Source of the DNA: Nageia nagi
Taxonomy: Eukaryota > Plantae > Pinophyta
Length of the DNA: 64,000 nucleotides
Assembly: GCA_050084985.1 (NCBI GenBank)
Contig: JBITNC010000001.1
Coordinates: 171,554,001 to 171,618,000, forward strand
Direction of reading: 5' to 3'
The notes below the pieces were generated by a model. The model was given only the letters and a program-made list of their open reading frames with translations, was not told where the DNA came from and ran no database searches. Of the stretch, positions 6,442 to 56,250 are shown one piece after another; within the stretch, counting starts at the first letter, position 1, and every line of letters begins with the position of its first letter. The position numbers and the translations under genes were made by a program.

Positions 6442-8737
6442 CGTAGAAAATTGCATGCCCACTAATAGCCTAGATGGTTGCATCAAAAATTCTCTTTACT
6501 ACAAACTATTCCTTGATCTTCTTATATATAGCATATTCCCATTCATCATTCCTCATGTAATAATGCCTGAATTTGTTGTGATACCACCACTTGGGATAAA
6601 CATTCGACACTAGGGTATTTTTCTTCTCCAACTCCCTTAAACCTGAATCTGATTTAGACCTACATTTGCCATGTAGTAATAAATAGACCAAGTAGGAATT
6701 CATATAAAATTTTCTAAATGAACCCAAATAAGCTAATTGATGGTGCAAAGCATCATTGATTACTTTGCTCCATCATATAGCCCTCCTGGAGCTAATAAAT
6801 TACAACCAATGTCTTATGTAGTCTCCCGGCTTAGTAGTGTTGTCAAGGAACTCCACAAACTGGGCTTCAATATATTCATCTCCATATCTTCTCCACTCGA
6901 AGGCAGCTTCAATCCTTGTTGGAATGAAGTCCATGATTACATTTCCCTCGGTATCCAAAAGAATCCTCTTGTCTAGTTTACAGTGCTTGGCCACTTTGTA
7001 ACACAAATTAGGAAAAGCAACAGCAAATGCCATCATGGTAGCATTAAACAACCCACAAGAGTGGATAATCTCATCTTGTAAATTTTCCTCGCTGATATCA
7101 GTGATGGATGCAATGGTCTGAACAAGATCAATGTTACCCCAGTTAATGTCACCAACAAAGGTGAATCTTATGGCGTCCCATTTGAGCCAATGATAAATTA
7201 TATCATGGTCTCTTTGTATTCTAGGTGTTGTTCATGTTCATGTTGTATATGTGTAACTCAAGAGGGAGCTTATGGTCTATGGACCCCACTGTGAGACCAG
7301 AGTCCCTTTGAGTAGTGATGTTGTGTGTTGTGATCGATACTCCTGGATTATGGAAATCCCAATGTAGTGTTGTATGTGTGGGTAATCTCGGATTGTGGGA
7401 ATCCATGTAACATCCCATTTCAGAAGGTAGAGTTCGCCACAAGTCTTGGAGAGTTTGTATGATTGGTTCTTTGGATAGGGCATCTTGTGGGAAACGTTTT
7501 GACAGGTCACACGACATGGTTTCATCAAGAGACGAAGCAGTTATGGGCTCTTGGAGTTCACCAGTCGGACCAATCTTCCACTTCATGGCCACCCACAGAA
7601 ATCTTTGAACAGCTCTATATTGACCCCTTGAAATGTGACGTCCCACTCCTTGGAATGTGAGTATGTTGTGATGTGTATTCAATGCATGTAGCAATAGTAA
7701 TGGGACCATTTGTCTAAGCTATGATGCATGATTCCAAGGCATTGCATATCTAGCCATTGGATCTTGTGATTACAGGTATCCCTAGACAACATTGGAATAG
7801 AGAGGCATGCGCATGATTCCTAGGTGAGATCTAGGAGAGACTATATATTGAGGATGGAGCTCCATGATGAGGTTAGATATTGATTATACTTCTTCTATAC
7901 AGAACCTGATCGGGCATACAAGTCTTGGCAGTGTTAAGCATTATTCCTAGACGGCATTTAGAGGGATGACAAGGTTAGGAGCCTGGCACTCTACGACTTA
8001 GGTGGGTCACCTAGTCCATCCGATGGCATTCCGAGGGTGAGCTTCTACCTTCAGTGGTCGCCAGGGTTCAAGGAGGCTCCTTCACAGAAGAAGATTCGGA
8101 GTCTAAGGGAGTGAGTCTTTCCTATGGTGTTCGGCATGCAGCGGGTTTGGAATCCTAGATCTAGATATTGTGATCCTCATTGTACCCCATACCATTCCAT
8201 AATAAAATACAGCTTGTGTCTCTCTCCATTGTGTTGTGCATTGTTTATGTATGTGTGTGTCTCTTGTATACTGGTGTTGGAAGCTTGTTCTGGCTCCATA
8301 TTGTTGTGTCACCATCGTCGGTAATTTTGTGTTGTGCATTGTTGCTGGAAGGCTTTCATGGGGTTTGCAAAGTGTTGGGAAAGCCCTAGGGGCTGACATC
8401 AGCATTGGGTGGATCTCATTTGTTGTTGTGTGTTATCCGGGAGCCCTAGGAGACCCACGTTGGTGCATTGAGGTGTTTGTATGCCCTAAAGGGCAATCGT
8501 TGGGTGTTTGAGGGCTAGAGAAGCCCTAGCTTGGTTTGTTTTTGCTGAGGGTAATTTTGGAACATCACAAATCTCCCTTTGAATGTGGCACAGGGAGCTC
8601 TGGTTTCTCTCATTCTTGAAATTCTATCTAACTATCTTTGAGAAGCCTTTCCATCTAATCTTTTATCACATGCCTCTCAAACAGCTGATCTGGAGCTTCT
8701 TGGATTTGGATGGGGTAGACTTTGCCCTGGAACTCAT
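6442..8737 (-). pseudogene. Accessory-ORF copy D (uncharacterised LTR-borne protein), split by the 7226-8567 insertion and truncated at 6442
   Basis: ATG at 8737 gives MSSRAKSTPSKSKKLQ. Left of the insertion: GDINWGNIDL...AFPNLCYKVAKH...IEAAFEW...QLAYLGSFRKFYMNSYLVYLLLHGK...YPKWW...NDEWEYAIYKKIK, colinear with 10901-12031. Confidence 0.8.
7226..8567 (+). mobile_element. Solo-LTR-like insertion
   Basis: TGTTGTTC...GAACATCA imperfect inverted termini, CTATATATTG near 7841, homology to 4468-5440. It interrupts accessory ORF D. No clear TSD. Confidence 0.6.
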
Positions 8738-9179
8738 ACTAAATCAACAAGTATATTTTGAAACTAGCTACAGAAAATGGACTGAAAACCCCTTTTATAG
8801 AGGATGCATGGAGTGTGAATGTTTGGCGCACTGCATGGGCGCCACTTGTTCATTAGGTATTTTCACTTTTGGCTATCCACCACTTAGTCAAATTTTAAGT
8901 CAGTTTCTCTAGGGCACACCGATTTGAAAGGGTGCTTTTTCACTGTGTGAAAACCTTGCGCCTGGATACTGTTGACATTCCAACACACCCCTCCTCTTGT
9001 TTTTTTTTGCAAAAGGATAAGGGGACCCTCAATTCAAAAGCAGGAAGCTTCAGAAAATCTCACCCAAACAGCATTTTGATCAGTGATGGAAGAAAGTTGT
9101 TCAGGATAGCCCAAAGTGCAACTTTAAAATCAGCTAGAAAGCTTCCTTAAGAAAAATAAGCACTTTCTGAGGAACTCAT

Positions 9180-10900
9180 GCATAGGAACAGGTGTGAAAT
9201 CCAAAAATGGCTAAGCCCAAGGTTGGTCGCACATTGCAAGAAAGATACACTTTTATGGAATGGCACAACCACCCTTTCAAACAAGTTTCAGCATCTAAAA
9301 GTGATTAAGTCCTCAAATTTTCCATTTTTTGAGGGTGTTCGCATGGTTTCTAATAGTTGCAAAATCATCTTCCTTTAACCATGCGACCACTTGGGCAACC
9401 TAGAAGCATAAAATTGGCTAAAGTGCTGGAAATTCTCTTCCTAAGGGCGTTTGCACTATTCAAATTGGTTGAAAATCCATCTTTTCGTGGACCACCCTCA
9501 TTAAAACGTTGCATATGCCTTAGCCACATTCGGCCCTCACCTAAACCAAATGGACGAAGACACTTGGCAAGAAAGCTAATATATAAGAGAAGGCCACCAA
9601 GTTCCTTTGTCGCTTTCATTTTGCAGCCCAAGAGGTGTTCGCAAGGTTTCTAAAAGTCACATGTCCATCATTCTTAAACCGTGCAACCACAGTCACATGT
9701 CCATCATTCTTAAACCGTGCAACCACACTCCTTTCAAAGTTTTGAGTTCAAAAATTGACTAAGTGTTGGGAAAAGGACTCATCAAAGGCGTTCGCATGAT
9801 TTCAAAAAGTAGAATTTCTATCTTTGTCCGAGCATGCGACCACCTCTCCTAGACATTAAGCATGCATTGAAACGGCTTGTCTCAAGTTCATTTGGCCTCC
9901 ATTCCGACCAACCCAACATGGACACTTGTCAAAAGGAAAACTATAAAAGCAAGTCTTGTTTTAACTTTCACCAAGTTAATCTTGGCCTCTAAAGTGGTCG
10001 CATGATCCATAAAAGTCATCATTGCATCTTGTTGAAGGCATGCGACCACCCCTTTCCTACGTTTGCACACAAATGATTGCATGGTTTCATAGAGTCATGA
10101 TTGCATCTTTTGAGGAAGGCCCAACCACCTTTTTGCATCTCCAAAATCAACTAAGTATCAAGTCCAAATTGTTCTAAGGATGTTCTGGTTTTTACAAATT
10201 GAGGCTACATATCTTCAAAGGCATGCAACCACCTTCCTCTTGCATTACAAAGGACATTTGTCAAAGAGGTTGCTTTTCTTCCTTGAAATGTTGCAATCTG
10301 GCAATCCAAAGCAGCTACAAAAGAGAAGAAGGGTGACTTAGTCAAAATTGTCGTTCCATTATTGTCATAGTGTTGGTCGCACGATTTCAAAAAATCACAT
10401 TTCCATCATTCTTACACCGTGCGACCATCTCCTTCTTGCATCCTTGTTCGCATTGTCATAATCTATTGCACCATTTTGTCTTGCATTAACTCATTTTACA
10501 AATTGGTCGCATTGTCCCTAGAAGATGACGTCCATCATTATGAATGCACGCGACCACCTTTTTGCATTTAAGACATTTTAGTAGCATTCATTTGGTCGTA
10601 AAATAGACCCATGCATTTTGTTACCTTTTTGTGGTCCCACCATTCATTTAAGTTAGAATTCATTTGCATTTCGAAAAAGGGATCACTGGTCGGCCAAAGT
10701 CCATGCACTCATACACTAAAATTAAGTTGTAAACGACGTTGCATGTAGGAAGAAGTCGATCACCTTGTTATCATTACCATCCAAGTCTCTTATTCTCATA
10801 TAAAGGCATACAGGCCTATTAGGCATAACACCTTTCTTGCATTACACCTAACATTTGTTAGAGTTAGTTGCTACTAACTCGGTTTCTTTGCAGGTTAAAG
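9180..10900 (+). repeat. LTR-like non-coding region with a dispersed GCGACCAC/GTGGTCGC motif array upstream of accessory ORF E
   Basis: About 12 copies of (T)GCGACCAC or TGGTCGC between 9220 and 10600. Exact 36-bp tandem duplication at 9655-9726. Confidence 0.65.
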
Positions 10901-12498
10901 ATGGCAAAGATCAATTCTAAGCTAAGCAAATCCAAGAAGCTGCAATTAGCCAAATTGACTGAGCGCAATCAGATAGAGTTCATGAAAGAAAACCCCAAAG
11001 ATCCCTTGAAGCAAGCCAAATTCAAAAATAATTTTACCAACGTCCGGGATACCAATTGGTCTACCACTAACCCAATTCGGACACTCCAAGCTATTGGGGA
11101 GTTAGACAAATTCCAAATCCTTAAAGAAGTAGTATGCACGTCTGGGTTGGCAACTGCTAACTTAATCCCTTTTGTTGTACCTTTTCCAAAACTCTGCTAC
11201 GAAGTAGGCAGACATGCCAACTTCAAATATCGAGCCCTCTATGACACCAATGAAAATAAGATCCTAGATTTCTCTCCTTCGGGGATTGAGGCCTTTAAGT
11301 GGAGTAGTGAAGGGGTCGTGTATATGGAGAGAGATTCTTTGGAATATTATGAGAAGTCTCCACAAGCTGCAAGTCTTATTAGAAACTAGATCGAAGAGGA
11401 AAGCAAAGGATTCACAGGAAACAAATTGTTAAATGCAAAAAGGCAAAACTTCTACCTCACGGTGTCTAGGATCATTAGCATGTTATCTAGGGCCACTGGC
11501 AAAGAAGACGACTTCAAGTTTCGGAGGTAGTTTACCGGATTCATTGTTGTGATCAGGAACCAGCAGAGAATAAGGTGGAGCAAGGTGATTAGTGACTCCC
11601 TCTTATTCCAATTAGCTCACACTGGCTCCTCAAGAATATTCTGTATGAATTCCTATCTAGTCTTCCTTCTCATCCATGGCAAAAATAGAAAATCAGCCCA
11701 TGCAGACATTGAGATCTTTAACAGTCCAGAGAAGCCTATATGGAGAGCTTACCCCAAGTGGTGGTTAAAGTCCAGATGGGACTATTATGTCATGAAAAAT
11801 GATGGGTGGGAGTTCAGAATCTATAAAGAAATCAAGGGGAGGCAAATGGTGAAAAAGATCTCCGATTCAGCTGTTGAGGCCATTCGAGGGCATGCTGACT
11901 ATTTTCTAAAAGACCCCGCACATACCTACATTTGGGTCTATGGCTCCGAAGTCAAACCTTATCTTTTGCCTCGATATGCCAACAACCGCCTCATCCTTAT
12001 GGAGTTCTATAGGCAATTGTTGTCTTTATAGGAAAATGTATGGAAGAAGAAAAATGCTACAACCGATCTCCCCATTTCAATCGGGGATCACACTTGCTCA
12101 ACTTGGCAAGAGGCTAAGGAGATGGACAAAGAATTATCCTACAACCACTTCATTGAGGAGGAGGCAACCTCCCACTATGATCCTGAAGGAAGAATTCAGT
12201 GCTTCTATAAGCGGGCGTTCAAGAACCCTATGAACTATGAGAATTGACCTCTTGGAGACAAAGAAAGATATAGGAACAAGAGGGAAGAGAAGCAGATTCA
12301 AAAGGTCCATTAGATCTTAATTGTTGAGGGACGTATTGATAGAAGGATTCAGAACCTAAACGATCCCCGGGACATCTCAACCGACAAATCTACCTCCTCG
12401 TCAAGAGTGAGAAGACACCAAGGAAGAACAAAAGAGCACACCACTTTGGGTGGGGCTGAGTCCAGGATTCACACTGTGGTCAAGGAAATTACCAAGGA
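10901..12498 (+). pseudogene. Accessory-ORF copy E (best-preserved copy, 3'-truncated by a copia LTR)
   Basis: MAKINSKLSKSKKLQ...DTNW...FPKLCYEVGRH...WSKVISDSLLFQL...MNSYLVFLLIHGK...YPKWW...DGWEFRIYKEIKG...YIWVYGSEVKPYLLPRYANNRLILMEF, with a few in-frame stops. Preceded by TACTAAC-TCGGTTTCTTTGCAG. Confidence 0.8.
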
Positions 12499-25999: not shown

Positions 26000-28223
26000 A
26001 AGTTAAAGTTGAAGTTGTTTTACATGCCATCTTAGTGTTTTATATTTTTTACCACCTTTTCATGGTGAATGAAACCATAATGTGGTACCAAATGAAACCA
26101 TGCATTTACTACCACACAGTTGCATTAACTTTATCTTTGGTGAGCTAGTTGCCTTTTAATATGGTTGTTACTCAAATAACAACTTTATTGTATGTTGAAG
26201 CTACTAGAGTGAACCATGGCACCAAGGAAACACCCATGGAAGTTTGTCTTGAAAGTTTATCACGAGGTAATTCTTCCTCTTTATCTGTTGTCATTCCTTT
26301 GAAGGAAATTAACTCTACATGCAATGGTTAGAGGATTGTACTCCGATATGATATTTCCCAAATCTTGAATGACTCCCTCATTTGCAATTGGATATAGATG
26401 ACCTAGCATCCTTATGGAATCAAAGTAAATAATATTCAAAACCTATCAAGGGATTTTTCCATTTTTCAGTTTATTGACCCAAAAAGTGTCAAGGTTATTC
26501 TTAGTTGAGGATCCTTGTATGTCTATAGTACTTTACTTATTTTTCAATATTGGTCCTAGGACCTTATTATCCCTAATGATATCTCCCTTAAAGTCCCAAT
26601 GTGGGTAGAGTTTCCAACACTTCCTTTACCCTTGTGGATCATCCCTTCAAAACTTAGTTGAGCTAATAAGAGCATATTTTTGCATGGAACATAATAATTT
26701 TTATGCAATTCTTCCCCACTATCACATCTACTTCAAATAGACCTCTTAAAGTATCTTAAGAAGCATATAGACTTGTAAGTGGATGACACCACCATCTAAC
26801 AAAGGTTGGTGTACATTAAATTATCAAACACTTACTACAAGTGTCAATTTGCAATCCATAAGATTAAGGATTATCCATTTATGGAGGGGAATTTCAAACC
26901 TTGAATCCTGGTAGTTCTATCTCCTGCTCCAATAACCCCTAAATATGCAAACAATGAAGGTCATGAAAAATGGACCATTATGACTAATAGTAAGAATAAG
27001 AATGAAAAATAACTTGTTCAAATGATAATGCAAAATAAAATGTCAACTTCCCCAACACCAAGGAGTTATCTCCTCTTGTTGTAATCCCTATGCTCTTAAC
27101 TCCTCGTATATATCCTATTATAGCCCCTTATGCAAACTTACCTTCACCTTTAATGCTTCCTTTATCTTTCAATGCTCTGGTTTTCCTAAGGTCAAAATAA
27201 ATCGATCTTAAGGAAATAGGCATACTTGTACATCATTGGCTATCCAACAATCTCATAGTCCATCTCATGATGGAGCTCTTGTACCTTTGGAGAAGCAACA
27301 TCAAATGGAATTCCTTTGATATAACCATGACCACTTTGTTTTCAATATGTTACAATCTCTTACATCCCTGGAAGACTTCAATGGGAATATGATCCTTGAT
27401 CATATACCATGATTTTTTATCATGTAATATATATGGATAAATGGACCTAGTCTGCAACTATATGATTTGAAGTGAAATTTATAATATCACTAACTAACAT
27501 GGAAATCTACACTTTCTTTGTCTCTAAGAAGTTCAAGTTTTTTACTTTACTTTGTAAAATACTTATATTTTGATATGGCTAAGTAACCACTTTATAACAC
27601 TAATCATACTCTTAATAAAAGAGGAAGCTATCACTTTCATGGAACCTTGAATGTATTCATATTTTAAACCAAGTAGTCTAGGTCCTTTTGTAAATTGAGG
27701 GGTAACCATTTAGAATTATCAACATATATGCCTCATATTATGCACCATATCAATGCACTCTTTAGCATTAGATTTCTTTCTCCTTATCGCATATAGTTTG
27801 GACTCTATGTGGTGGCCTTAAAATGATTAAAAGAGTATCTAATAAAATTGGTCATCTTCTAATATGTTGGAAGTGGATAAGTGAGAGGCATGGTATCTCA
27901 TACAAAATAAATAGGGGCTTTATGATCCTAATGCATGTTTTTCATTAAACAATTTATCCAACTCACTTTGGTTCAGATGTTCCAACTTTCAAATTGGACA
28001 TGATTGAATTTTGTAGCATTTGGACATAGCCATATTGATAGAATAATCCAACTTCTAATTCCATCAAGCATTGCCTTCTTTCCCTTTTTTGAAGCCATCC
28101 TTAACAACATGCTTTGTGATCATGATCCCATTATTTTTTTTCATTATGAATCATATAGCCCCTCATGGCCCTTCATCTCCCAATTTTACTTAAACACGTC
28201 CTCCATCATTTGACTATGATGTG
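26000..28223 (+). mobile_element. Decayed L1 LINE, 5' part (ORF1 and APE endonuclease remnants)
   Basis: ORF1-like KVPMWVEFPTLPLPLW (about 26590) and zinc-knuckle remnant YKCQFAIHKIKD (about 26835). Endonuclease remnant SHIDR...CDHDPI...FYLNTS (28028-28200). Confidence 0.7.
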
Positions 28224-34222: not shown

Positions 34223-34226
34223 TTAT

Positions 34227-34245
34227 TGGCGAGTCTGTTGGGGAT
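34227..34245 (+). promoter_or_regulatory. Primer-binding site, tRNA-Arg-like
   Basis: TGGCGAGTCTGTTGGGGAT 4 nt after the LTR; close to the Ogre/Tat TGGCGACTC(C/T)(A/G)CTGGGGA type. Confidence 0.75.
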
Positions 34246-35232: not shown

Positions 35233-36750
35233 TTGTCCAAACTAACAAGCCCTTCCAAAAGAACAATTCAATGCTCAGGATTAGTTGAAACAAGTGCTTG
35301 GAATCTTGGCCCTACAGAACTAGAAAGATATTTACGAAGGATTCAAAGGGAATGGACAAATACAGACCCAAATACCACACTTATTGAAACAAGAATCCCT
35401 ACTCCTATAAGAAGTATATCACTTGAAGAATATGAGATCAATATTATAGGATCTAAACTAGATATAGAAGCTTTTGAAATGGTTGAAAGAAATAAAAGAC
35501 TTTCACTACCATGGGAAAATAACTCTGTACCTTTGATTTTACAAGGGGAAAAACACAATCTCCTTAAAGAAACTAGAGATCTTCCTCATTTTTCAGAAGA
35601 TCAATCTAGTAATACAATAGAAGAACATCTTGAAAACTTAAACACTTTTTGTGAAGTAAATGGAGTTGAATATGAATATGTTGCAATACGTATGCTTGTT
35701 AAAACTCTCATAGATTCAACACTACAATAGTATAATTTCCTCCCTATTGGATCAATTTCAAGTTGGGATAATCTATCAGATGCATTTCTATTAAGATTCA
35801 AAAGTCGAGTGTTAGGAACAAAATTAATCAATGAAACTTCACACATGAAGAAAAGAGATAGAGAGTTTGTTCCACGACTCACAAATCATTTCAATAAATT
35901 TTTTTAGAGAATTCCAATAAATTTAGCCTACCACATTCCAGAATGCAATGGATGAAGCAATCGGACATGAAGAATTTATGATTGCATTAGAAAAAATTAA
36001 GAGAAATAAAACTTTTGAATCAAGAAAATGGAACATTGAATCATCTAGTAAATAAGATAAAAGCAAAGCTCTTTAACAAAAATAGGTTGAAAATGAATTA
36101 TTGAGGAAATTAGCTAATATGACTATTCAACAAACTCAAAATACACAACATGGATTCAGACCTCAATAGAACTTCAAAAAATTTCCAAATCAGAATAGAG
36201 GGGATTTCAAGGATGAGAAGAAGACATTACTTGTTCCTATGGATAGACCATAATGTTCAAACCCAAACCCCTATTGTAATCTCTATAAGTATGAACATGA
36301 TCCTAACATTTGTATTACTATTAATATATTATAGGAGATGCTTGCAGAAAATGAAGTACTATTCGGAAATAGTGACCTAATCGAACAAGGAGAATCTAAT
36401 TTACTCTTGGAAGAAAATAATGAAGATACTATAAAGAACTTATTTCAAAATAGTATTCAACATTCCAAATGTTATACCATGATGACAAGATCCCAGGCCA
36501 ATCTTTAAGCCCAACCATAGGATAAAATCAAAAGAAATCTAGACTGAGGAAAATAAGAATGATTCGCTTAGTTTAAAATATAGTGTAGTCAAAGCTCTAT
36601 CCAAAAACATGACCAATATTTCCATCTTGAAAATCTTGCAGAGCGACCCTCAGGATATGAAAGAACTCTCATACGTAATTAAACCTTCCAAAACATGTGT
36701 AAATCTGATCATGGGAAAGGTCACCATTGAAGAACATGTTTATGTAGCTG
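35233..36750 (+). pseudogene. gag (decayed)
   Basis: LPHFSEDQSSNTIEEHL...VEYEYVAIRMLVKTL...LPIGSISSWDNLSDAFL. Zn-knuckle-like PYCNLYKYEHDPNIC near 36270. Confidence 0.8.
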
Positions 36751-37110: not shown

Positions 37111-37317
37111 ATTGAGGATACATTGCAAATCCTTAAACCCAAAGCAAAACAAATATGGATGGTTGTTACTAAAGAAAATAGGATTGAAGGAAACACTCAA
37201 GAAAATCCCTTTCATGAGGTTAACCTACAAGAGAACCAATCAATGGAATTGTTTCAAGACATGGAAATTAGTTCATATCAAGCTATCGAGGAGGAACTCA
37301 AGAGGTAGATAAATATC

Positions 37318-37720
37318 ATGAGCTTAAATGATGTTTGGAAAATGTATTTCGATGATAGTAAATGTAGAGAAGGGAATAAAGCAGGTGTCATTTTTATCTC
37401 TCCTAATGGGGCAAAGAAAGTTTTTTCAATAAGATTGAGTTTTCACTACACCAATAATATTGCTGAATATGAAGCCTTATATCAGGGTTTGAACATAGCA
37501 AAGAAATAATATAGATTCAAAATTTGGTATGTTTCAGGAATGCAAAGTTAATTGTCAAGCAAGTTAAAAAATAGTTTCAGACTAAAAGCCCCAAGTTGCG
37601 ATCATATAGATACCTTATATGGGACATGATTGGAACCTTTGATTCTTTCAATATAACTACTATCCCTTGAAATCAAAATTCTCAAGTAGATTCTTTAGCT
37701 ATATCAACTTTTATGATAAA
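37318..37720 (+). pseudogene. Archaeal-type RNase H (aRH) located between PR and RT
   Basis: WKMYFDDS...AGVIFISPNG...RLSFHYTNNIAEYEALYQGL...NSQVDSLA. Confidence 0.88.
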
Positions 37721-38079: not shown

Positions 38080-39430
38080 ATTGATTGAAACATTCAAAAG
38101 GTTTAAGAAATTTTTTTCTTGGAACTATTATGATCTTAAAGGGTTCAAAAAATATGTTTTCTAGCATATTATTGCATTGAAGGATAATTCTAAACCTTTC
38201 AAATAAAAAATTCAATGTTTTAATCCAAAAATCGAAGGAATGATTAAAAAGGAAGTTGAAAAAATGTTGTCATTAGATATTATTTATCCAATTAGGAATT
38301 CCTATTGGATAGCCAACATTATTCCCGTTCAAAAGAAAAATGGAGACATTAGAATATGTATTGACTTTTAGACTCTCAACTTGGCATCCATTAAAGATAA
38401 CTATCAATTACATATGATGGACCACATTTTGTAGACTATCAATGGCTCATAAATATTTTCTCTACTAGAAAATTATTCTGGTTATAATCAAATTTGGGTT
38501 GCAAAGGAAGATCGTTTCAAAATAACATTCACCAATCCTTGGGGTACTTTTGCATACAAAAGGATTCCATTTTGATTGACCAATGCAGGAGCTACTGTTC
38601 AAAGAGTTTTGGACTTTGCTTTTAAAGATGTGATCAACAAGATTATTGTTATATACCTGGATGATATGAAAATTTTCTCGAAGTGAAGAGAAGACCATGT
38701 GAAACATGTTATTCAGGTACTAGAAGTATGTAAAGAATTTGGGATATCATTAAACCTGAAGAAATCTATTTTCAAGGTGACTGAGGGGAAACTCTTAGGC
38801 ACATCGTCTCTAGAGATGGAACTCATATTGATTAGAAGAGGTAATTACTATCAAGAAAATCCCTTTCCCAATAAGAAGAAGCTTTACAATCTTTTTTCAA
38901 AAAGGTTAGTTTCTTAAGAAGATTTATCTTAGATTTTGCAGAAATTGTATTTCCTCTAAATAAGATGTTAACACAAAATGTTGAAATCAAGTGGTCTAAT
39001 GAAGGGAAACTAGCTATTGAAAACATCAAATAAGCTCTTACAAGCACTCCTACTATGGTGCAACCTGATTTCAGTAATATTTTAAGATGTATACTCACAC
39101 ATTGGATCATACTATTTGTTTAATATTAACATAAGTAAATGATACAAATGAAGAACATCCGATTGCTTTCATGAGCCATTCTCTAAAAAGTGCAAAAGAG
39201 AAGTAAACCTTCCTAGAAAAACAAGTGTTCACTGTAGTCAAGGTAGTCATGAATTTCAAAGTTTATATCTTTGGGCTATAGATTACTATATTTTTACTAG
39301 ATCCAATTGTAAAAACTATTTTGACATAGAAATAATTAGGCATTCTCAAAGGATATTGGATAGCTAAAATTTAGGAATTCAAATTAGTTTTCAAGCCAGT
39401 TAAGTTGGTCAGAGGAAAAGGAATATGCAA
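38080..39430 (+). pseudogene. Reverse transcriptase and gypsy RNase H
   Basis: VQKKNGDIRICIDF, FSGYNQI-like, PF.LTNAGATVQR, IYLDD (38651-38665), EHPIAFMS, KPVKLVRGKG. Confidence 0.9.
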
Positions 39431-39649: not shown

Positions 39650-40620
39650 TTGTTAAGATGTGTTGAAAATAACCAAATTCTAAAAATCCTTAAAGATTTT
39701 CATAATGGAGTATGTGGTGGAAATTTTGCTCCTACCAAAACTACATATAAAATAATTAGGGTTGGATACTATTGGAATACTATGTTTAGAGACTATAATA
39801 AATATTTTCATTATTGTATAGAGTGTCAAAAATTTGCTGGCAGAGAGAAGTTTAGAATTGCCCCTTTGAAACCAATTATAGCTAATGCCCAATTTGCAAA
39901 ATGGGGTATTGATTTTGTAGGCCCAATCAAACCTTTGTTCAGTAAAGTACATATGTTTATCCTTATAGCTACTAATTATTTCACTAAGTGGGTAGAAGCT
40001 ATACCTACTTTTTGAGCAACCTCTGCAATCGTTATCAACTTCCTTATGAAAAATATGTATTCTAGATTTGGTATTCCCATTAGAATTGTCACTGATAATG
40101 CTATATGCTTCAATTGTATTGAAATGACCAATCATTGTCTTGAATATAATGTCCAAATCTAACTAGTATAAGATTATTACCCACAAGGAAATGGTCTCGC
40201 TAAATCATCAAACAAGAATTTGAGATGAATCATTTCTAGAATCCTTTGCCTTAATTGAGAAATTGGCATAATAAACTAGATTTTTCCCTTTGGGTAGATT
40301 GATTCACACCAAAAGAAGCAACTAAGTGCTCTTTGTTCTATATGGTTTATAGTAGAGAATAAGTTCTTTCGATCCAACTAGAGATTCCTAGCTTGAAATT
40401 AATGGTAAATATCAAATAAGATGAATCGGTAATAAAATCTAGTTGTGGAATAGTTGTCATGAAGACAAGGGTAAGCATAAGAAGTTCAACTCTTTATGGT
40501 TGGGACCTTATAAGATTTTTTAAAAAAATCTCAAATCATACTTGTACCATTTGTGATGGTGACTTGTATGTTTTCTCAATTACTTATAATATCATACATC
40601 TAAAAAAATTCTTTTCACAA
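39650..40620 (+). pseudogene. Integrase with GPY/F motif
   Basis: FHNGVCGG...GYYW...CIECQKF; WGIDFVGP; [10 protein letters not shown]; RFGIPIRIVTDN; YYPQGNGLA; KFNSLWLGPYKI. Confidence 0.9.
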
Positions 40621-41866
40621 GGCATAAATGAATGAAGGATCGAGGATGTTATCCTTAAAAAGTTAGACTAGATCATTAGTCCAAACGTTCCTTGTACATC
40701 ATGTATATATATTAAAACAAAAAATGTGTATTTTCAATGATTAAATTTTGATCAAGTTAATATTTTAAGATTTATTTATCCTTTCAAGCTTTTATACTAG
40801 TGTTCTTGCATAATTTTTCAAACAAGAGAGGTTTTTATGAGATAGTTTTCTTGGAAGTTAGTCTATTTACTTTTTGACCATAAAAGAACTTAAGGTTTCT
40901 TCTAAGTTGTTAATCTTTAAAATTCCTAAGACTCAATTTTATAAGATTGGACCCTAAAAAGAGATTGATGATATAAGAGAATTGAATAAGTCTTATGAGT
41001 AATACTAAGATAATAATGATTTTTCATTGATCTCCTTCTCAATCTAGCTATGAGAATTTGAAATGCTGGAATGGATGATGAAAGTTTTATTTCTTTCCAA
41101 ATTTATTTTGTTGATTATGGTAAGACTAATAATATAAAATATAAAAAAAGGAATAATTACAAATAAAAAAAAGGAAAAACGAAGAAAAAGAATGATGAAA
41201 ATTATTCTTAGCACTCAAAGAAACTCCATCGGGGCTATAAACGCTTGTTTATAGTGTGAGCAATTATTTGAAATCAGAGGTATCCCTACCAAGGCTATAA
41301 ATGCCTTCTAGAAGTAGAGGAAATGCCCTATATAAACAAGTACCAAGGATGTATGTAGGTAAATCGTACATAGGGATGAAGTACCATAAAAGAAAGGTTG
41401 GATTGATATAAAAAGTTACATTCCGAGTTCAATATTAGCAATGATGATTGCATAGTTTATTATCATGATCTTTGGAGATTATTTTTATAATAGTGTTCCC
41501 AGATAATTTATTTGATTAAATTATACTTTCTATTTCTTTTTAAGGATTATCCAATCAATTATTTATCAAGAGGATTAGGAAGATTGCAATGAAGGAGATT
41601 CTTGAGAAACTTTTTAAGTTGATGGATTATAGGATAATTTTTTAAGTTCCCCACATCTCATAAAAAAATTCCATTATTCTATAGCTATTCAAGAGAATGA
41701 CCAAAAATTACTAGGAAGGATTTCTTATTTCCAAAGTCTAAATATTTTCTTCTTCTAATCATGATCACCATGTTTTTTTTTCTTTGTGTAAATAATATGG
41801 CTTTGGTAACTAGAGATGATAGGATATTTTGTCTCACCAAGGCAAGACATCCCCAAATAGAGCCAA

Positions 41867-44800
41867 TGTTACCACCCAATGTTTGATTAATAAATGTTTT
41901 CTACTTTTTTCTCAATTTAGGTATCTAGGAAAAGTTTTATTATTTGTTTTAATTAAAAAAACATCTAAAAATTAAATAATCAAAAATCCAAAAATAATGA
42001 CTTATCAATACCACATGTTTTTATCACAAAATAGTTTGGACCATTAGGTAGTGTCTTTCACTATAGAGGCAAGTGCATATTATAAACATTAGTATGGAAG
42101 TTGATTTTTATGAAACTATTGAATGCCATCATCTAAGTTTGATTATAAGCACCTACCCTAGCCACGAGTGGAACTCGGTACTACTCAACCATTGAATGAT
42201 GAACATTGAAATCTCTCTTTCAAAGCTAAGTGCTCATTCTAGACACTGAAAAGTGTAAGTCGGTTCTCATCATGAACTAGAAACCAAAATGATCTTAGTT
42301 TTCAAAATTAGAGCTAATAATGATGAATTTTGATTATCTTTTTGTTTCCTTTTTTGCATCTACTTAGAAATCAACCTGGTAGATACTAGGCACTTTTCCA
42401 TCCCTTAGTTGAAGCTTGTAAACTTCCTAGCTAGAGCGACTAAGTGATAATGGTGTTTGCATAGAGTTGACCTATTAGCAAGAGTGACTATCATTGTTGT
42501 AGGATGTTGAATATTGATATGTAGCAACTAAGAGACTCCATTATCATCTCCACTCCTTATGACCTACATCCAAACAAGAGATCAAGGTCCATGGGACTTA
42601 GTCAGATCAAACCTTCCTTTCCTTTGTTGCATTATCTTGCACATTCATTTAAAGTGACTAACTAAAATTGAAACTTAATTTAAAGTAACTAAGTAATACA
42701 TTTATCACATTTGGTTAGAACCCACCTTACAATGACTAAGCATTGTATTTTTCATACCAATTTTTCTTCTGACCATAGTAACCAAACACATTCTAAAAAC
42801 TCTAACATTTGGTTGTCGCACTGAATTGAAGTGCATCTCAAAGTGACTTAAATGTTTAGTTTTTGCATGATTTTGAGTTCATCTCAAAGTGACTAATTTA
42901 TATTAAAGTTGCATCATATTGATAATCAATTGTAAGTGACCATGCACTTCATTTGTCACATCATTTTAAACTTCATTTCAAAGGACTTAGCCAAATTTTA
43001 CTAGTCGCACCCACATATGTTTTTAACTTGATGCGACTAAAGGAAAATGAGTAATTTTGAGAAAATATTTTTTTGATAAAATTACACTTTTCATCTTATC
43101 TCAAAATGATGGTTAACTTAATTTTCATCTATTTTTCAAGGTGAGCAAGTCAAAGAAATACACCAATGGTTATTGCCGACTCACCAAGAGTAGTTTAATT
43201 GAATTGAACAAAGATGGGAAAATAAAGCAAAGGGCTCGATATTATGATAGAATTGAGAACATCAAAGATATTAAGTGGAATCATACTGATTTAGTTTTTA
43301 TAATCAAAGAGGCTGATGGGATTTTAGAAGAGGTCAAAGAGAAAGATATCCTCCATTCTTCAAGACTTTTCAAGGATGCAGTTATTCATTTTCTATGACT
43401 TTTCAAGAATTAGTCCTAGAAGTTGCAAAACATACAAAATTTGAAAACAAAGTTGTAAATGATGTTGATGTAAACATAATTGTAGACCTTACCAAAGAAG
43501 GCATTGAAGAAGCTATGGGTTGGTCCAATAGGGGTGTCATTTTCATCCAAAATGATGTTAATCAAAGAATGAAGAATACAATAACAAACATAGGCCCAAT
43601 GATTTCATACGATCTCTATTGAAACCAGAGCATCATGGTTTAGCTTACCAAGCTATCATGATAGTGCAGAGATGTTTATTTTATGAAACAACAAATAAAG
43701 CCATTAGTTTCTTATGTAGAATTTTGGTTAAATCTATTGATATCTGGTTTGATAAGGACTTGTTTAGTTTCCTATACAAATTCAATAAAAGGGAGAGCAT
43801 CTAGTGGAGTAAGGTTATCATTAATGAGATGATCAACCAGTTAAAGGAAGTGAGGATAACAAGGAGATTCTTTTATTTTTTCATATTTGGTATTTTTATT
43901 ACTGAAGGGTAAGAATCAACCTCATACCCATGGCATCAAAAAGGTTATCTTTAATCAGATGGCTACTATCTATATGGCCTACTCCAAATTTCATAAGGTT
44001 GAAGAATGGAGTTATATCCAAATGAGGATTGATGAATGGTAATATGCGATTATTAAGGAGATGAAAATGACCTAACATGTCCCTATGATTTCCATCGAAG
44101 CTTATGAATTGTTGAAAAGGTTTATTGATTTTTACCTTGAGTAATTTGATAAATATTATATCAAAGTTTTTGGTGTAGATATGGCTCCTCTGAAATTACC
44201 ACATTACCTGAGTGATAGAATGGTTTTTCTATAATTTATCAAACAAGCTTCCTATTTTCATGAAAATTTTGCCAAGGAGAAGAAATAGGCAACAATCAAG
44301 ATGTCTATCACCCTATCTTGGTATTGTTGCAATAATTGGTTGGAAGCGAAGATCATTAAGTGTGAAATTAAAAGATATAGTTTTGAAAGACTATTGAAAA
44401 TGAATTATGATCCAACTAGAGTGGTTGATAGGTTTTATTAGAAATTTTATACAAATTATAAACATCACTCCCTCGACCACCTAGAGAAATTTTGAAATGT
44501 GCGCTCAGAGCTAGAGACTCAAAGGATCTCAAAATAATTGGTACAGGAGGAGGGGAGAAAATGAAAGGAACATCAAGAGGTAAAAGCCATAAAAGCCCCC
44601 CATAATAGTCTCAATAAACATTTAAGCATGATTTTACTAAATATCTAAATTTCAATCCATTCGGCTAAATGCAAGGAGTTAATGTCTTGAAAATAATAAA
44701 TACATCCAAGATTGTACACATAAAGTCTCATTTTGAGAGTGGAAAAAGTAGTCATGTTGTTGCACCTGGTGAGAACTCTTATTCTAGTAGTAGTTATTTG

Positions 44801-47564
44801 GAGAGTTTTGATAATGACCACTGATCAAAATCAAGCAAAAATGATACAAGGTTAAGGAGTCATAGTTTTGAAAGGGAGGAGAAACAATCTGATAAAGATG
44901 AAGGAAATGAAGAAGAATAGGTTGAAGAAATATCCGAAGAATATCAAGACCTTTATTGACACCCACAATGAAGGAGAAGAGGAGTTTGTAAATATCATAG
45001 AATTCAAAGAAGAAGGAGAAATCAAGGAAAATGCACCTATTCCTCATGAGGGTTCATCTAGCTTGGATTTAATTGCTACTTATTCTTTCTCCACCTTAGA
45101 GGTGCCAAATCAAGAAGGAATGATTTCAGATATTCCAACACAAAAGGCCATGAAGGGGTCTACAAAAACTATGGATTGATTGATTAAAAGGTTTGAGGCA
45201 AAGAAAGATTCCATTCCTCATAAAAGATCTATTTCATAGAAATCTTCATCGAAATAGTCATCTAGAGTAGTTGGAGGGAATGACGGTTGTGGTGATGATG
45301 ATGATGAAGAAAATGAGAAAATAAGGAAGAAGAGAAAACAAGATGAACATGAAAAATAAATTATCATAGTTTATGATAACACTACCCTTGATTAGCTTAA
45401 CTCAAAAAATATTTTTAAGAATATAGATATTTATGCCTATTTGAAGAGGCTTGAAGAAATTAACAACGAAAGCAAAGGGGAAGAAGAAATAGAGGACACA
45501 TATGAGGAAGTTACCCTAATTTCTCAAGAATTACCAATTGTTGTAGAGTTTAGAAAGGAGACCCTATGCATTAGAAAACTTTCAACCAATGTTAGAAAGG
45601 CCAAATATAAGAGGTAGATAACCATGGAGTATGACATTGGGCCTCTAGGTATTGAATCCAATGCATACATCATTGATCATGGTACCAAGAATTTGACAAA
45701 GTTAGCTCAAGATAAAGAGTCAGAGGTTAATAAAATCAAGATCAAGATGAAGAAAAAATTTAATGATATTGGAAAAATGGGAGTTAATAAAGAAGAATTG
45801 AAATCTAGATATAAAAGAGGTTGTGAGTTCGAGAAGAGAATCAATAAGTTGATAGAGAAAGCAACCCGAGTTTTCCCAAATGCCTATCATGACCTTGTTT
45901 ATCTTGATAACATGAATTTTTTAGTTATATGGTGTTGAAGATGACATAAAAAAATATGCATATTAGTGGATGTAAGAAGTGTAAAATGTTGCAAGAATTG
46001 AGCATGAAGTTATCAATGATGAGAAATTGCTAATTTTTTATAAAGAATTTTCATTTCTTTTTGATTGGTTGTCAAATGCAAAACTCATATGCAAATCATT
46101 CAATGATAAATTCAATGAGGTTTATAAATAAAATCAACATATTATTAATTTGGTTGATTTTTCAACCTTGAATGAATCAAGTTAATGGAGAAGCGATAAT
46201 GAAGTCAAAGAAAGCTTGAGGGAACTCCTAGAGAAAAAGTTGAAATTAGAAGATTCAGAGGAAGTTTTTAGATCGTATGAGCATTATCTCTCTTGGATTT
46301 CCCATGTTAAAATAACACATCAAAAGATTACAAATTGGGAAATAGAGCAGATGATATGTCAATATCAGGGGTTATTGTAAGGATGCGATAGAGTTTGTAA
46401 TTTCTTAAGGAGAGATATCAAGGCAAAGGTTGTAGAGATGATAGCTTTATTTCCCCCTCAATCATCAATAAGTTGAAGATTAGTTTATTATTTTTTTTCC
46501 CAATAGCATTGTAAAAGTAATTAAGAGTGTTAGAAAAATTTTTTCCCCTTAATTTCCAAATATAGTTAAAGTTTTGTGTCTTATTTTCTAGACTTAGTTT
46601 CTTTTTGGGTTGGCTAGTTTTCAGACTTAGCCAAATTTTGATGGTTCTAAAATTAAGGTTTTAAAAATTAGGGTTTCTAAAGAAGTTATGGTTTTGTTTT
46701 AAACCTAAGTACTTTTTAGTAGCACTTAAAGGTGAAGGAGCCTCATTTGCAACTCTCTCTCTGGCACTCTAAATTCTAAAAATTGCACTCTGAAGCTTCT
46801 ATAATATAAGATAGTATCTTTTGCATCTTGTATATGTATGCTTGTTTTTTTATACTTATTTGAGGGATGATATGAATTTAAAGTATATGCAATAATTAAT
46901 TTCTTATACCTAGATAATGTTATCTTTTTACAAACTTAAAAAGCAATTAACATTTGAGTTAATGAAAGAAATATGATGTATTATTCAAGCTACATAGTAT
47001 AATACCTCATTAAAGAAACTAAGTTTTTCATCAATAAGAAGTAAAAGAGACTAAGTGCAAGATGATCTACTTTGAGTTTTTCACTTCTTACTTATAACTT
47101 GATTAACTTGGGCAAGAATTCTTCAGCTTGGTTAAAATGGTTAAGTGATTGTTTACTTTTCTAGAATTAGTGGAATGATCATTTAAGTCAAGGGTAAGAA
47201 AAATTGTGATGGAAATAAACTAAGTCTTAGCACATTAAGAGGAAAAGGTGAAAAAAAGTTAAAAAGAAATTCATTTCATAAGTGAAAAGATACTTATGTC
47301 AAACATATTACTATCTTCCTCATAACTTGGATAACTCGAGCAAGTCTAAGGCAATTGAGTTACAAACATTAAGTAATTGCTTACTTTTCTGGAACTAGTG
47401 GGAAAAGTATTAATCTAAGCATAGGAAAGATTGTGAGAAAAACAACATAAGCCTTGAAAAAATATATTAGCACTAAGAAAACATAATGAGGACCACCTCA
47501 TTAAAAGGAGGATCTTAGATCCCTACTGTCCCCTTTTTCTTCAAACAAGAAAAAGTGGTTAACA
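41867..47564 (+). repeat. 3' LTR (5,698 bp)
   Basis: TG...CA termini; preceded by degenerate PPT AAATAGAGCCAA; lacks about 300 bp present in the 5' LTR. Confidence 0.93.
43141..46514 (+). pseudogene. Accessory ORF inside the 3' LTR (about 1,100 codons, decayed)
   Basis: ORF-track pieces SKSKKYTNGYCRL...DIKWNHTDL, FQELVLEVAKH...IEEAMGWSNRG, MEYDIGPLGIESNAY... Confidence 0.8.
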
Positions 47565-47569
47565 ATGTG

Positions 47570-50744: not shown

Positions 50745-53700
50745 CGCTAGATCAAGTCACTACAAGATTGGTGGTCTTGCACCACTTCAACCCTTCCATG
50801 ATTATAGATAGTAGGTATAGTGCTAATACAATGTCATGATTTCTATTTTGCTCCTCAAAAGATAAATTTCTTTATATGATTATGATTTCACATTCTTTGT
50901 TCACAATTTCAACAATATTTTTAATTATTGTAGAAGAGATTGATTTACAAATTATAGCATAAATTTAATTGTTAACTCCAATCAACATTAATTTGGGTAA
51001 TAACTTATCTAGATTTCTTTCAAAAGGTAATAGGAAACTGACAATGCAATCAACAATATCTTCCCTCTTAGATTCTCCTTCATATTTGGTATGGTATTCA
51101 CTTGTTATTTCAAGCACTTATTCTTCAAAAATTCCTTGAGGTATAAATAATATCGACACTTCAAAATTTGCTTCACTCTTGAATAACCTCTTATGAAATA
51201 GTCTCTTAATACTTTGATTAATAAGTTGTTCAGAAGGATATAGGTGTCTTTCTTGAAGTCTTATTAAATTTTTAGTCTAACTTATTGATAATATGTTAAG
51301 AATTTATTGGTTGAAAAAGATAATTTTGTTTTTAAATTTTGAATAGATTTTATCAACTATGAGAGCTCTTTCAATAGGGTGAGATCTTGGTAATTCCATG
51401 AAAAATCATCTCACCTTTCATTCCTTTTCTAAATATCTTTTCCAAAAAGAGTTAATTTTGAAGGTTTTTATTTGCACTTTTAAAAAATTTCCTGAGTGAC
51501 TAACAAGTATAGTCATCAACCCAAATTCACTTGTAAAAAATAGTAGCTTTCCCAACAAAGTCACCATTTTTTTAACCACTTTTTCTTATATAAGAAAAAG
51601 GGTAAAGTGATTAAACAATCCTCCTTTTTAACAAGGTGTTCCTCAAATAATATCAATATTCTTCTTCAACTAGATAATAAAAAATGATTCATTTATAAAA
51701 ATTCAACTAAAAACTATCCTTTTCCACTTTATAAATGGTTAGAAAAAGAAGTTTAATTTAACCTAGCTTCAAAGCTTACCAAGTCAAATAATAAAAGTAA
51801 TACCAGATAGATTAAAATGGCAATGATAGTTACCTTTTATCAATATATAATTTCAAATAAATATTGATTAATTAGTATTAATCTTCATCAACACTTATAA
51901 ACTTTGTTGCAATGCTTGTAAAAATCTTAAGAGGAAAAACAATCACATGCAATGCCAATTTACTAATTGAATTGTAAATAAAACGTACATGCAATAGTAA
52001 TATCAAAATAATGACAACATGAAAGCAATCAAATTCTTCTTTTATTAATTCTTAGTCTTCAAAAATACATCAGCTTCTTACATAGCAAGAGAGTGTTAAA
52101 AAAAATATTTTCCTTCTTTTATAATAATTGGGGAGTAGGTGAAACAACTTGACTCTTTGCCTACCCTATTTCAATTTCAAAAATATCTCCTTAATTTTTG
52201 GAGGTCCTCTTCAACTTCCTTCTAACCTAACTCAAATGAAAACTGACTAACTCTAATGGTCAACTAACTATATATTATATAAAAAAAATTATTTTCTCAA
52301 AATACAAATTCCTTTCGCTATCCAAGGTGTACCACATGTGAGTCAACATATTTCAAAGGAAAATCAATCCTCCTTTGCATGCATCCAAACCAACTGAATT
52401 CTAAAACCTCATCTAAGGGGTACAACATGAGTCATGAAAGCTTCATCAAATTAGCAAGATTATTCTACAAAATCTTTTCTTGCAAATTTTTATCAAAGCC
52501 ACACTATTGAAGAATTGCATGTTTCTAGTTTCTAGTACGATATTTAATTTTTCATGTATAGCTCCAAATTTTAATACCATTGAACTACATTTCACTTCAG
52601 TTATTGGAAACCATCCATAAAATAAAAATAATTTATTACAAATACTGATTTATTGTACTATGTTATTTGGAAATTTTTTCCTTCCATCTTGAACAAACTT
52701 TACATTTGCTTCCTAGATCTCATTTTTTGTCACTATCTTCTTATTCATGTCCTTTATCTCTTTTCTCATCACAAAAAACTAAGTCAAAAATCATAAGCAA
52801 TATCAAAAGTGGAAAGTAATTGGGAAATAAGAGCTTGAGCCTTTTAGAAGAATTATTATCCTTTTTAATAGTTTCACTTTATGATGTTATCATCTACATT
52901 TAAGGCTTTCCAACCTTTTCCCTACATTTGCTCTTACTTTAATTCTTTTTCCAATTCTTTGACCATTTTCTTATACCTTTTAATCAATTTTTGCATATTA
53001 TACATGGAAAATTTTCACATATAACCATTTATATATTCATTTATTCACTCAATGTCTACTTTATCTATATGAATTTTCAAATTTATTGTGTCCTTTGGTC
53101 ACTTTTGATTTCTATATATTTTTTTGGAGAAGATTATTACATCTTCTTTAATCCTTGGAAATCTTTAGAAGAGTTTTGGTGATCTTGAAGGTGTTAGTAT
53201 CTTTTCCTTATTCTTTTCATCTGCATCATCACCATCACTTTCACTCATATATTTTAGGCTTTGTAAATAGGCATTTAAGTCTTCCTTCTAACCAAGTTTC
53301 ATCATTGATTTTTTGAGCAGCATGTGATTGTGTTATAGGAATAATCTACTTCTTTGAAATTAGATCATGTTTAGTTTACTTTATTTTATTTATTATTTAT
53401 AAGATTTATTCATTGCTATTATCACCATCTCTTGACCCACCTACACCTAGGCTTTGATCCTTAATACCATTGGGAGTACTTGCATTGCTTTTGATATAAT
53501 TTGGCTTTTTTGGAAAAGATTTTGTTTTGATTATTTGGATCTTTGAATTGATGATGAATATATTCCTAAGTATGCATACGTATAATAACTTCATTTGGAT
53601 TAATTTATCCTTCCTCCTCTTCATCATATATATATTCAATGTTGATGTCTTTATTATCATCATCCTTAGTCCTCATTCTTAATGAGATACCCAGACTCGA

Positions 53701-56250
53701 AGAACTTCACGATCGACTTGATCCTTCACCATATGAAGAACTACCTTCCTCTTCATTTTTATTTGCTTGAGATTCATTTTACCCTTGATATATTATTGGA
53801 GATTAGACTTCATTAGGTATTTATTGTCCAACTTATTTCTCATTGAAGGCTTGCATGACTTCATTGACTAACTCCATAGTTCCACCATCTTAAGGAGATT
53901 ATTTTGGTGCATACATATCTTGCATCAAATCTATTACATTAATATTTTTCATGGTATTGAATTCATCAATTTCAATAACTTAATTGGATGATTCTCTAAT
54001 TGGATCCCTTACATGGAGAGGTAGAGGGGGCATTATAAGAATTTCAAAATTAGTAGGAGAAGAAGGAATAACATCTATCTTATCTTTATTACTTTCCTTC
54101 TCTTAATCTTCTTTTATTTTTCTAGAAACCTCAATTAATTCAATATTTAAAATTGCTATTTCTTTACTACATTAATCTTGCCAAGAGAGTAGTTTTCAAG
54201 TTCATCAACCATTATTTTAGCCTCTACGCAATAGCTACATGCAGAATACCCCAAGTTGAAAGGAAGCCTTATCATCCTATATTTTTTTCTCAATAAGTGT
54301 TCATACCCATACTTTATTTTCCTCATGAATTCAAAAACCATCATCTTGTTACTTACATATTTGGGTAGTTTCACTGGTTCTAGATCAACCCCATAAACAC
54401 AAATATAGAATACATTTGGATCCTCTAAGTAAAAGTATGTAAATTCATTGATAGCTTTCTTATATCCTTTTAACATCCTCTATAAAACACTAGGTCCCTT
54501 TAACTCATTGCAGATTGCATACTTTCATTTATCATTTCTCATCTTGACATCTTCCAACTTATTTTTCAAATTCCACTTGGGATAGGTTAAATATATGGGA
54601 ATGATAGGATTCCTAATCTTGTTCACTATACCACAATATTTAGTTTTATTATTACCATGTAACATTAGGTAAACAAAATTAGTATTCATATAAAATTGAA
54701 ATGTTTCTCTCATAGAGGTGAGTTTCTTGATTAAGGTATTACTGACTACTAAACTCCATTCGAGCATCTTTACATAACCTATATTGAGCAAGGAATATAA
54801 GAGGTATTTTTTAACCTTACATCTAAGTCTTTTCCAAGCCCTTGACTTAGAAAGCTCAACAAGATTGTGGTGCTATCTTGGAATCAAACTTTGTTTTCCA
54901 CCAACATCTTAAAATGATCAAGATCTTTGTATTCTAATTTCAAAAAGTTTGTAATTAGTTTTTTTTTTTCCTTAGGACCTTACAATAATTTACCTTAGAT
55001 TAGTCTTCTATGTATTCAAGACCTTTGTTAGACTAGCTAAAGTAATCTTTAATACCTTTGGGGTTCAAATATTCTATGAAATTACCTATGCAATATTTGA
55101 TAATTGTACTTTCAAAGTTGATTTGACAATGACTTCAAGGGCCAACTCTAAAAATCATATAACAAAAGGAAATATGATAAATTTGAAGAAACTTGGAGAA
55201 TATACCATATCATTTTGCTTCTCCTCTTAACTATGTTTGTCTATATCTTTGTAAATATTTTATGAAGCATTGTGACTCCATTTTTTATCTCTATTATTCT
55301 TTTATACATCATCAAATATTGCTTCTTATTTCAAGATTCCCTCCTTTTGTATCTCAATCAAAGTTACTTTCATCAATCTCTTTTTCACTTGATCTCTTTA
55401 AGAACTCATTCTGCATAATGAAAATATGGGTCAAAATTTTCATAAGATGAACCTTTATTTTCTTTTATTCATACTCAAATTTTTGTTAATGAAAAAAGAT
55501 GCAATTTTGTTTTTAATAGGTCATTTGGATCAAAATCAAAAAAATATTTTAAAACCATTATTTATTCTAAGTTGGATCAACAAGGTTGTTGATAAATTCC
55601 AATTCACATTAACATTGAATCTTCCGATATGACCTATTTTGTTCAAAGAGTTCGTTAAGCATCATTCAAGACTTAGTTTTTTAATTGGATCTAAACTTAA
55701 TAGTTTTTTAATTGGATCTAAACTTAATATTGATGAAATTTGAAAGTTATTATTTAGTTTCCAATTCTAAAATAAGAAGGTTAGGTTGACAGTCTTGTTA
55801 ACAAACATCAATTTGTGTCATCATTATCGTTACAAATTTGACTTTAATCCCTTGAGAAATTTCTTTAAGTCATGATAAAGTTTCATTATTCTAGGTTGAT
55901 TTTAAAACATATTTATCAACATTGTGATATTTTTTACATACTGTTACTTGGATATGACTAAGTTATTCTTTGGAAAGACTTAAGTCCCAAAATAGTCGGT
56001 TGGGTCAACTTCATCCTTTACATTTTACATTTTTCTTTCTTATCATCATTTTTGATCCAACCCATGTCTTATCCTTGTAAAATATATTTTAGGTATTCAT
56101 AGTTGTTAAAATCATTATTATTGGAAATCAATATCAGAAAACTTCAAATTTCATCCTAATATTTTAGTTTTGGACCTGTAGACTCTAAATAATACAATAG
56201 TATAAGTAATTAGGGGAATTAATACAGACACTATTTGGTCTATTTGTTTT
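50745..56250 (-). mobile_element. Older truncated relative of the giant-LTR element (5' LTR part, PBS, extra ORF)
   Basis: Minus strand AAGAAAAAGTGGTTAAAA (LTR end, about 51570), PBS TGGTGACTTTGTTGGGAA (51566-51549), then the extra-ORF homologue NKIIFFNQ...IKRLFHKRLFKSEANFEVS. Confidence 0.75.
52150..55409 (-). pseudogene. Accessory-ORF copy F inside the LTR of the minus-strand element
   Basis: TTATGCAG|AATGAGTTCT start at 55409; EWSLVVSNTL...FYMNTNFVYLMLHG...YPKW...MRNDK; YICVYGVDLEPVKLPKYVSNKMMVFEF. 3' boundary approximate. Confidence 0.75.

Follow-up and report, generated by a model that had tools for sequence, protein, structure and literature searches.

The question raised by this locus, a 64,000-nucleotide stretch of Nageia nagi DNA (contig JBITNC010000001.1, positions 171,554,001 to 171,618,000; hereafter the window), is what carries a protein-coding gene that recurs in it five times and what the product of that gene may do. 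Two of the five copies were found inside the 5′ and 3′ long terminal repeats (LTRs) of a single Ty3/gypsy retrotransposon insertion. We regard the position of the gene inside the LTR as nearly certain; the product very likely has the fold shared by PMD and DUF1985 proteins, and the complete explanation, an LTR-borne DNA-binding protein of this fold that acts like the VANC anti-silencing protein in TatII-type elements, is evenly balanced between right and wrong.

Five copies of one protein family in the window

A first-pass annotation had described five diverged copies of one uncharacterised family, with the following open reading frame (ORF) remnants.

6454..8737, minus strand: ORF copy 1; N-terminal piece at 8737 and core at 7168-6454, separated by unrelated sequence
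10901..12498, plus strand: ORF copy 2, the least decayed of the five; a single frame, with 3 stops among its first 458 codons
29796..33158, plus strand: ORF copy 3, frameshifted and interrupted by stops; a conserved core is followed by an acidic linker and a coiled-coil-like tail
43141..46514, plus strand: ORF copy 4, decayed
52150..55409, minus strand: ORF copy 5; the 5′ LTR that holds it belongs to a related, truncated element

Profile A3, built from 126 database relatives with the window sequences excluded, generated 11 domain matches in the window, all 11 inside these five copies, and none in the reversed-sequence control, which confirms that they belong to one family. The best independent E-values for copies 1 to 5 were 3e-72, 6e-150, 5e-88, 6e-50 and 7e-40. 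Copies from different elements showed 28-37% amino-acid identity in tblastn and either no nucleotide similarity or short patches only, while 7, 9, 8, 7 and 5 of the 10 motif patterns tested were found in order in copies 1 to 5, respectively (one LP.Y match in copy 4 is out of register), as expected from the described strong DNA divergence with retention of ordered motifs. Copies 3 and 4 were 84.6% identical in nucleotide sequence across 3.4 kb. All five copies carry stops or frameshifts. Copy 1 is real, but its homology was detectable by profile in 7168-6454 only, rather than across the 6442-8737 first given for it: the N-terminal piece with the SKSKK motif (8710) lies ~1.5 kb upstream of the core with unrelated sequence between them, and the copy is cut at 6454 by the terminus of another LTR. 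The acidic segment and coiled-coil-like tail ascribed to full-length copies were present in copy 3, but no similarity was detected between the C-terminal tails of copies 3 and 5 (best tblastx E 4.3).

One insertion with copies 3 and 4 in its LTRs

The region around copies 3 and 4 contains the following features.

28219..28223, plus strand: left target-site duplication, ATGTG
28224..34222, plus strand: 5′ LTR, 5,999 bp, with TG..CA ends and a short inverted terminal repeat; holds copy 3
34227..34244, plus strand: primer-binding site (PBS), 4 nt past the 5′ LTR; 1 match versus 0 in 100 shuffles
35218..35850, plus strand: gag remnant, tblastn E 2e-10 to 3816-4220, itself Retrotrans_gag at E 8e-5
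37309..37506, plus strand: archaeal-type RNase H (aRH; RVT_3), upstream of reverse transcriptase; E 1.6e-4, marginal (22 bits versus a cut-off of 21.6)
38330..38800, plus strand: reverse transcriptase (RT; RVT_1), E 6e-19
39069..39332, plus strand: gypsy RNase H (RH; RT_RNaseH), E 4e-11
39668..40177, plus strand: integrase (INT), zinc finger and core; Integrase_H2C2 E 5.5e-10, rve E 3.6e-5
41845..41866, minus strand: inverted PBS-like stretch, where a polypurine tract is expected
41867..47564, plus strand: 3′ LTR, 5,698 bp; holds copy 4
47565..47569, plus strand: right target-site duplication, ATGTG, a perfect 5-bp match to the left one

The 84% direct repeat 28224-34222/41867-47564 is the LTR pair of one insertion, with the same TG..CA termini on both repeats, copy 3 in the 5′ LTR and copy 4 in the 3′ LTR. 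Both copies are in sense orientation, 1.3-1.6 kb from the LTR start and ~1.05 kb from the LTR end. The gene can be assigned to the LTR because both ends, the PBS and the target-site duplication were located. We take the PBS to be of the tRNA-Arg type. The gag remnant gave no match in a direct Pfam search, and no protease of this element was confirmed by Pfam. Between the integrase and the 3′ LTR lies an imperfect ~420-bp inverted repeat (40704-41794, 59%).

No polypurine tract was found before the 3′ LTR, the longest purine runs within 40 nt being 4 in the window and 5 in the metagenomic relative L004. An inverted PBS-like stretch occurs in these two distant families (window 41845-41866, L004 1744-1763); among the 26-mers of the window, 0.1% and 0.8% score equally well. 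A PBS adjoining the 3′ LTR has been noted in two pine families (PMC3762812), and the inverted stretch could mean tRNA-primed plus-strand synthesis.

The domain order of the element is gag-aRH-RT-RH-INT. An aRH before RT defines TatI of club-mosses and TatII of gymnosperms (PMC6317226), and the element is, judged by this order, a TatII-type Ty3/gypsy element; the order also points to a gymnosperm host. It also shares the 5-bp duplication and sense extra ORFs with the TatII elements of REXdb, and differs from them in its length (19.3 kb versus a listed 8.3-18.1 kb) and in a PBS that is not of the dominant tRNA-Asp/Asn type. Lineage II was said to have no extra ORF, in a survey that searched for LTRs up to 2,000 bp (PMC4408406). 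Of 27 TatII elements in REXdb, 23% have a sense extra ORF on the 5′ side and 26% have one on the 3′ side; no domain match is listed for these ORFs and no placement in the LTR is given (PMC6317226 and its supplements). The 5′ and 3′ ORFs may be one and the same gene, because a single gene carried by each LTR would appear on either side.

Extra ORFs are otherwise treated as features of the internal region, and a conserved 3.4-kb gene in the LTR departs from this textbook picture of plant elements (PMC7264820). No LTR-internal gene appears in the available text of PMC3485330, PMC2633040, PMC3762812 and PMC11963269, and no description of an LTR-internal ORF in plants was found in the literature, although Figure 4 of the REXdb paper and its supplements 1 and 3, which lay outside the search, may already show it. 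What is new is thus the place of the gene, inside the LTR of a lineage reported without extra ORFs or without known domains in them. LTR finders capped at 2 kb would miss such LTRs, and a gene-bearing 6-kb LTR would require multi-kilobase strand transfers. The first-pass annotation was right about an accessory protein but missed its LTR position, the TatII domain order and the function that the fold suggests.

LTR context of the other copies

Traces of the same arrangement were found next to copy 5.

51549..51600, minus strand: downstream of copy 5, the 3′ end of its LTR followed by a decayed PBS; same LTR end as in the copy 3/4 element

The leader that follows this PBS is 61% identical to 34147-34966. 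Upstream of copy 5 lies a 153/192-bp tandem array (57383-58141). Contigs of two related DNA runs contained many relatives of copy 2 at 80-99% identity and did not resolve its LTR ends; in these runs, the sequence directly downstream of copy 2 (12580-13400) is a very high-copy repeat. In a metagenome scan, 11 of 68 candidate stretches were confirmed, mostly on short contigs and none with a whole element, and two scans of viral contigs found no relatives. On contig L004, an integrase (2-667) precedes an LTR that begins at 1764 and the ORF, which runs from 2644, and L008 has the same LTR start with a different 4-nt flank; their family is distant, with ~15% identity to copies 3 and 4. L010 carries inverted duplications resembling assembly artefacts and lends weak support only. 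Two LTR-like stretches of the window, 5443-6454 (plus strand) and 18895-21550 (minus strand), match the regions up- and downstream of the gene in L010 and L011 and lack the gene itself; they are probable deletion derivatives.

A gene that is not normally LTR-borne, with 6-kb repeats formed in this one element when an internal extra-ORF region recombined or was duplicated in tandem, would accord with these ORF-less relatives, with the LTR ends of copies 1 and 2, which were looked for and not located, and with L004 and L008, which show an LTR start only. Such an origin is very improbable, as both repeats share their termini, the PBS follows the first of them, the perfect 5-bp duplication lies outside, no further internal copy of the termini was found in the copy 3/4 element, and copy 5 and L004/L008 show the same arrangement in other families.

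Selection and age of the insertion

The ratio of nonsynonymous to synonymous substitution rates (dN/dS) of intact relatives was 0.035-0.122 in nine of 10 pairs (the other was saturated), in agreement with the purifying selection on an accessory protein that had been proposed; the L010-L011 pair gave 0.083. Between elements of the window, a comparison suggested in the first-pass annotation, seven of nine pairs gave 0.13-0.38 and two were saturated, with dS near saturation. Pairs across two deep subfamilies (0.26-1.0 or saturated) are uninformative at 12-21% identity. Copies 3 and 4 gave 0.53, within the 95% range of a neutral simulation (0.47-1.01), and this pair fits neutral decay, as expected after insertion. 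The Kimura two-parameter divergence between the 5′ and 3′ LTRs is 0.158, and at a conifer substitution rate of ~2.2e-9 per site per year the insertion is roughly 35 million years old.

Predicted fold of the protein

The family comprises 186 representatives at E<=0.001 and 37 further profile matches; relatives with a source name are annotated as hypothetical, and intact ones reach 1,010-1,120 residues. Pfam scans of the window copies and relatives yielded no significant family, including DUF1985, DUF287 and PMD, so that no characterised Pfam domain removed the novelty of the family, and by its sequence it fails membership of both DUF1985 and PMD. A gag or pol identity was rejected on the same scans. 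An env-like identity was rejected as no transmembrane segment was present in three relatives (P0002, P0074 and the L005 ORF; maximum Kyte-Doolittle 19-residue window 1.2-1.5). The family is therefore neither gag, pol nor a transmembrane env, as had been stated.

The AlphaFold2 model of P0002, a relative 44% identical to copy 2, was confident to about residue 495 and disordered beyond, and its 302-residue core modelled alone reached a predicted local distance difference test score of 90 and a predicted template modelling score of 0.89. Both structural searches with VIA used P0002 models. With the full model, the top match was VANC21 bound to its target DNA (9lnk_A; Z 6.7, 229 aligned residues, root-mean-square deviation (rmsd) 4.6), and the other 49 listed matches were coiled-coil helices. 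With the core, only two of 48,161 chains reached Z>=2: the VANC21-DNA structure at Z 6.8, with 236 of 302 residues aligned, rmsd 4.7 Å and 7% identity, and a second chain at Z 2.0. In a language-model search of the ESM Atlas, a 20%-identical relative pointed weakly to DUF1985 (0.86) and PMD (0.84), ranked after unnamed clusters. VANC/DUF1985 and MAIN/PMD proteins share a fold (PMC13547354; bioRxiv 10.1101/2024.09.27.615353). These predictions make a PMD/DUF1985 fold of the family very likely, and the repeated protein probably represents a distant relative of PMD/DUF1985 proteins, a type of extra ORF already known from Tat elements, and no new fold. The guess of a PMD-type domain made in the first-pass annotation thus gained structural support through VANC21/DUF1985 and the Atlas lead but no Pfam PMD match, and since structure supports that similarity, the novelty of an uncharacterised family is lower. 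The predicted layout would be a VANC21-like core of ~300 residues and a further folded stretch that ends near residue 495, followed by an acidic linker without ordered structure and by a tail that forms a coiled coil.

The match to VANC21 might instead reflect a common helical arrangement in an unrelated new fold, possibly of a structural or movement accessory protein. No Pfam or PDB-sequence match was obtained, the Foldseek search of the model of P0002 that had been suggested as a check returned no match in BFVD and PDB at E<=0.001, and Z lies below 8. We consider a new fold improbable: the match spans most of the core and stands by itself among the chains searched, a separate method (the ESM Atlas) applied to a distant relative points to DUF1985/PMD, and VANC21 is itself an accessory protein of plant transposons.

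A possible VANC-like role

Two further features bear on expression and function of the gene.

29016..29024, plus strand: the sole TATA-like match of the 5′ LTR, ~780 bp ahead of the ORF; putative promoter
9200..10860, plus strand: short-motif array upstream of copy 2, GCGACCA nine times in both orientations; 0 of 200 shuffles

The TATA-like match at 29016..29024 sits in a ~300-bp stretch that is absent from the 3′ LTR. TATA-like matches also precede the genes of L010 and L011 as well as copies 1 (63 bp upstream, at 8800), 2 and 5. If the TATA-like box is the promoter, the gene would lie in R or U5 and, as the single box is upstream of it, would come first among the cistrons of LTR transcripts; the first strand transfer would span ~5 kb, and every LTR, solo LTRs included, would carry its promoter and gene together as an independent unit, at the 5′ as well as the 3′ end. 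Protein genes inside or overlapping a retroviral LTR are known in mouse mammary tumour virus (sag) and human immunodeficiency virus (nef), where they measure ~1 kb or less and lie in U3; the gene described here differs in encoding an unrelated protein, in its length of ~3.4 kb and in lying downstream of the only TATA-like box.

Family-specific 7-mer arrays were significant in six of nine upstream regions (copy 2, L011, L005, L003, L004 and L008) and in none of four control regions. VANC binds motifs of 8-9 bases that are arranged in tandem in the non-coding parts of its own family, is family-specific and causes loss of methylation (PMC5735166). By analogy, the protein would recognise short motifs that recur in the LTR encoding it and, by binding them, would keep its retrotransposon family from host silencing. 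Sequence-specific DNA binding is somewhat favoured over its absence; a VANC-like anti-silencing role is the single most likely mechanism, though its chance falls a little short of even.

The main rival is a PMD-like nucleic-acid binder that serves replication through transactivation, integration targeting, nuclear import or chaperoning of multi-kilobase strand transfers. It would be consistent with the LTR architecture and purifying selection as observed, reviews propose regulatory accessory roles and a nuclear location for plant extra ORFs (PMC7264820; PMC11963269), and a PMD with a coiled coil is the usual design of Tat extra ORFs (PMC4408406). The sole structural match, however, is a sequence-specific anti-silencing factor, and the motif arrays differ between families; a replication role is the less likely of the two and in itself doubtful.

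Several points weigh against the VANC-like reading. Searches of PDB sequences with three profiles gave nothing significant and missed VANC21, which was also not among the matches listed by Foldseek. The Z of 6.8 is below the level of 8 under which VIA advises caution (a common arrangement being possible), at 7% identity and 4.7 Å, and the VIA models come from P0002 and none from a window copy, all five of which are broken. ESM Atlas scores below 0.9 are a lead only, and P0002 gave no usable match there. No motif array was detectable upstream of copies 3, 4 and 5, three of the six array-positive regions (L003, L004 and L008) come from a single family, and LTRs in general often carry repeated motifs in U3. 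The fold does not tell silencing from anti-silencing, because MAIN/MAIL1, host proteins related to silencing, share it. Finally, the 5′ and 3′ sense extra ORFs of TatII elements are already recorded in the REXdb table.

Comparison with VANC and PMD proteins

VANC21/VANC (DUF1985, PF09331), from the VANDAL Mutator-like transposons of Arabidopsis, shares with the present protein the predicted core fold, the status of a plant transposon accessory gene, a coiled-coil region (PMC13547354) and, in some of the families here, family-specific short-motif arrays. The present gene differs in being carried by a retrotransposon LTR and not by a Mutator-like DNA transposon, and its product differs in the low identity, in lacking a Pfam DUF1985 or DUF287 match and in that its DNA binding is predicted. 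VANC has been described as dicot-specific (PMC13547354). PMD and PMD-coiled-coil extra ORFs occur in other Tat lineages, and the PMD (PF10536) ORFs of TatIII/Ogre are likewise Tat-clade extra ORFs with a globular domain and a coiled coil (PMC4408406). With these ORFs and host MAIN/MAIL1, the present protein would share the fold through VANC (Atlas lead 0.84). It differs from the TatIII/Ogre ORFs in giving no Pfam PMD match and in its sense position inside the LTR, versus their internal 3′ antisense or 5′ sense positions.

The link to VANC21 makes the function of Tat extra ORFs directly testable, a candidate protein and candidate motif arrays being known. In a wider and tentative form, which we think unlikely to hold in all its parts, gymnosperm TatII LTRs would be cassettes of promoter, target-motif array and gene with VANC-like, sequence-specific anti-silencing activity, duplicated with each insertion and surviving in solo LTRs, and in the same elements an inverted PBS may take the place of the polypurine tract. 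If so, solo LTRs might act in trans as sources of an anti-silencing factor, and retrotransposons would have their own counterpart of VANC, beyond the flowering plants; it could help explain the persistent accumulation of LTRs in giant conifer genomes.

Other features of the window

Gag remnants of other elements lie at 3816-4220 and 62789-63076, both on the minus strand. A 128-codon open frame at 25209-25592 (minus strand) had no Pfam match. A plant-type host gene fragment at 15467-15790 (minus strand) carries an RSN1_TM domain of the OSCA/CSC1-type channels (E 4e-19).

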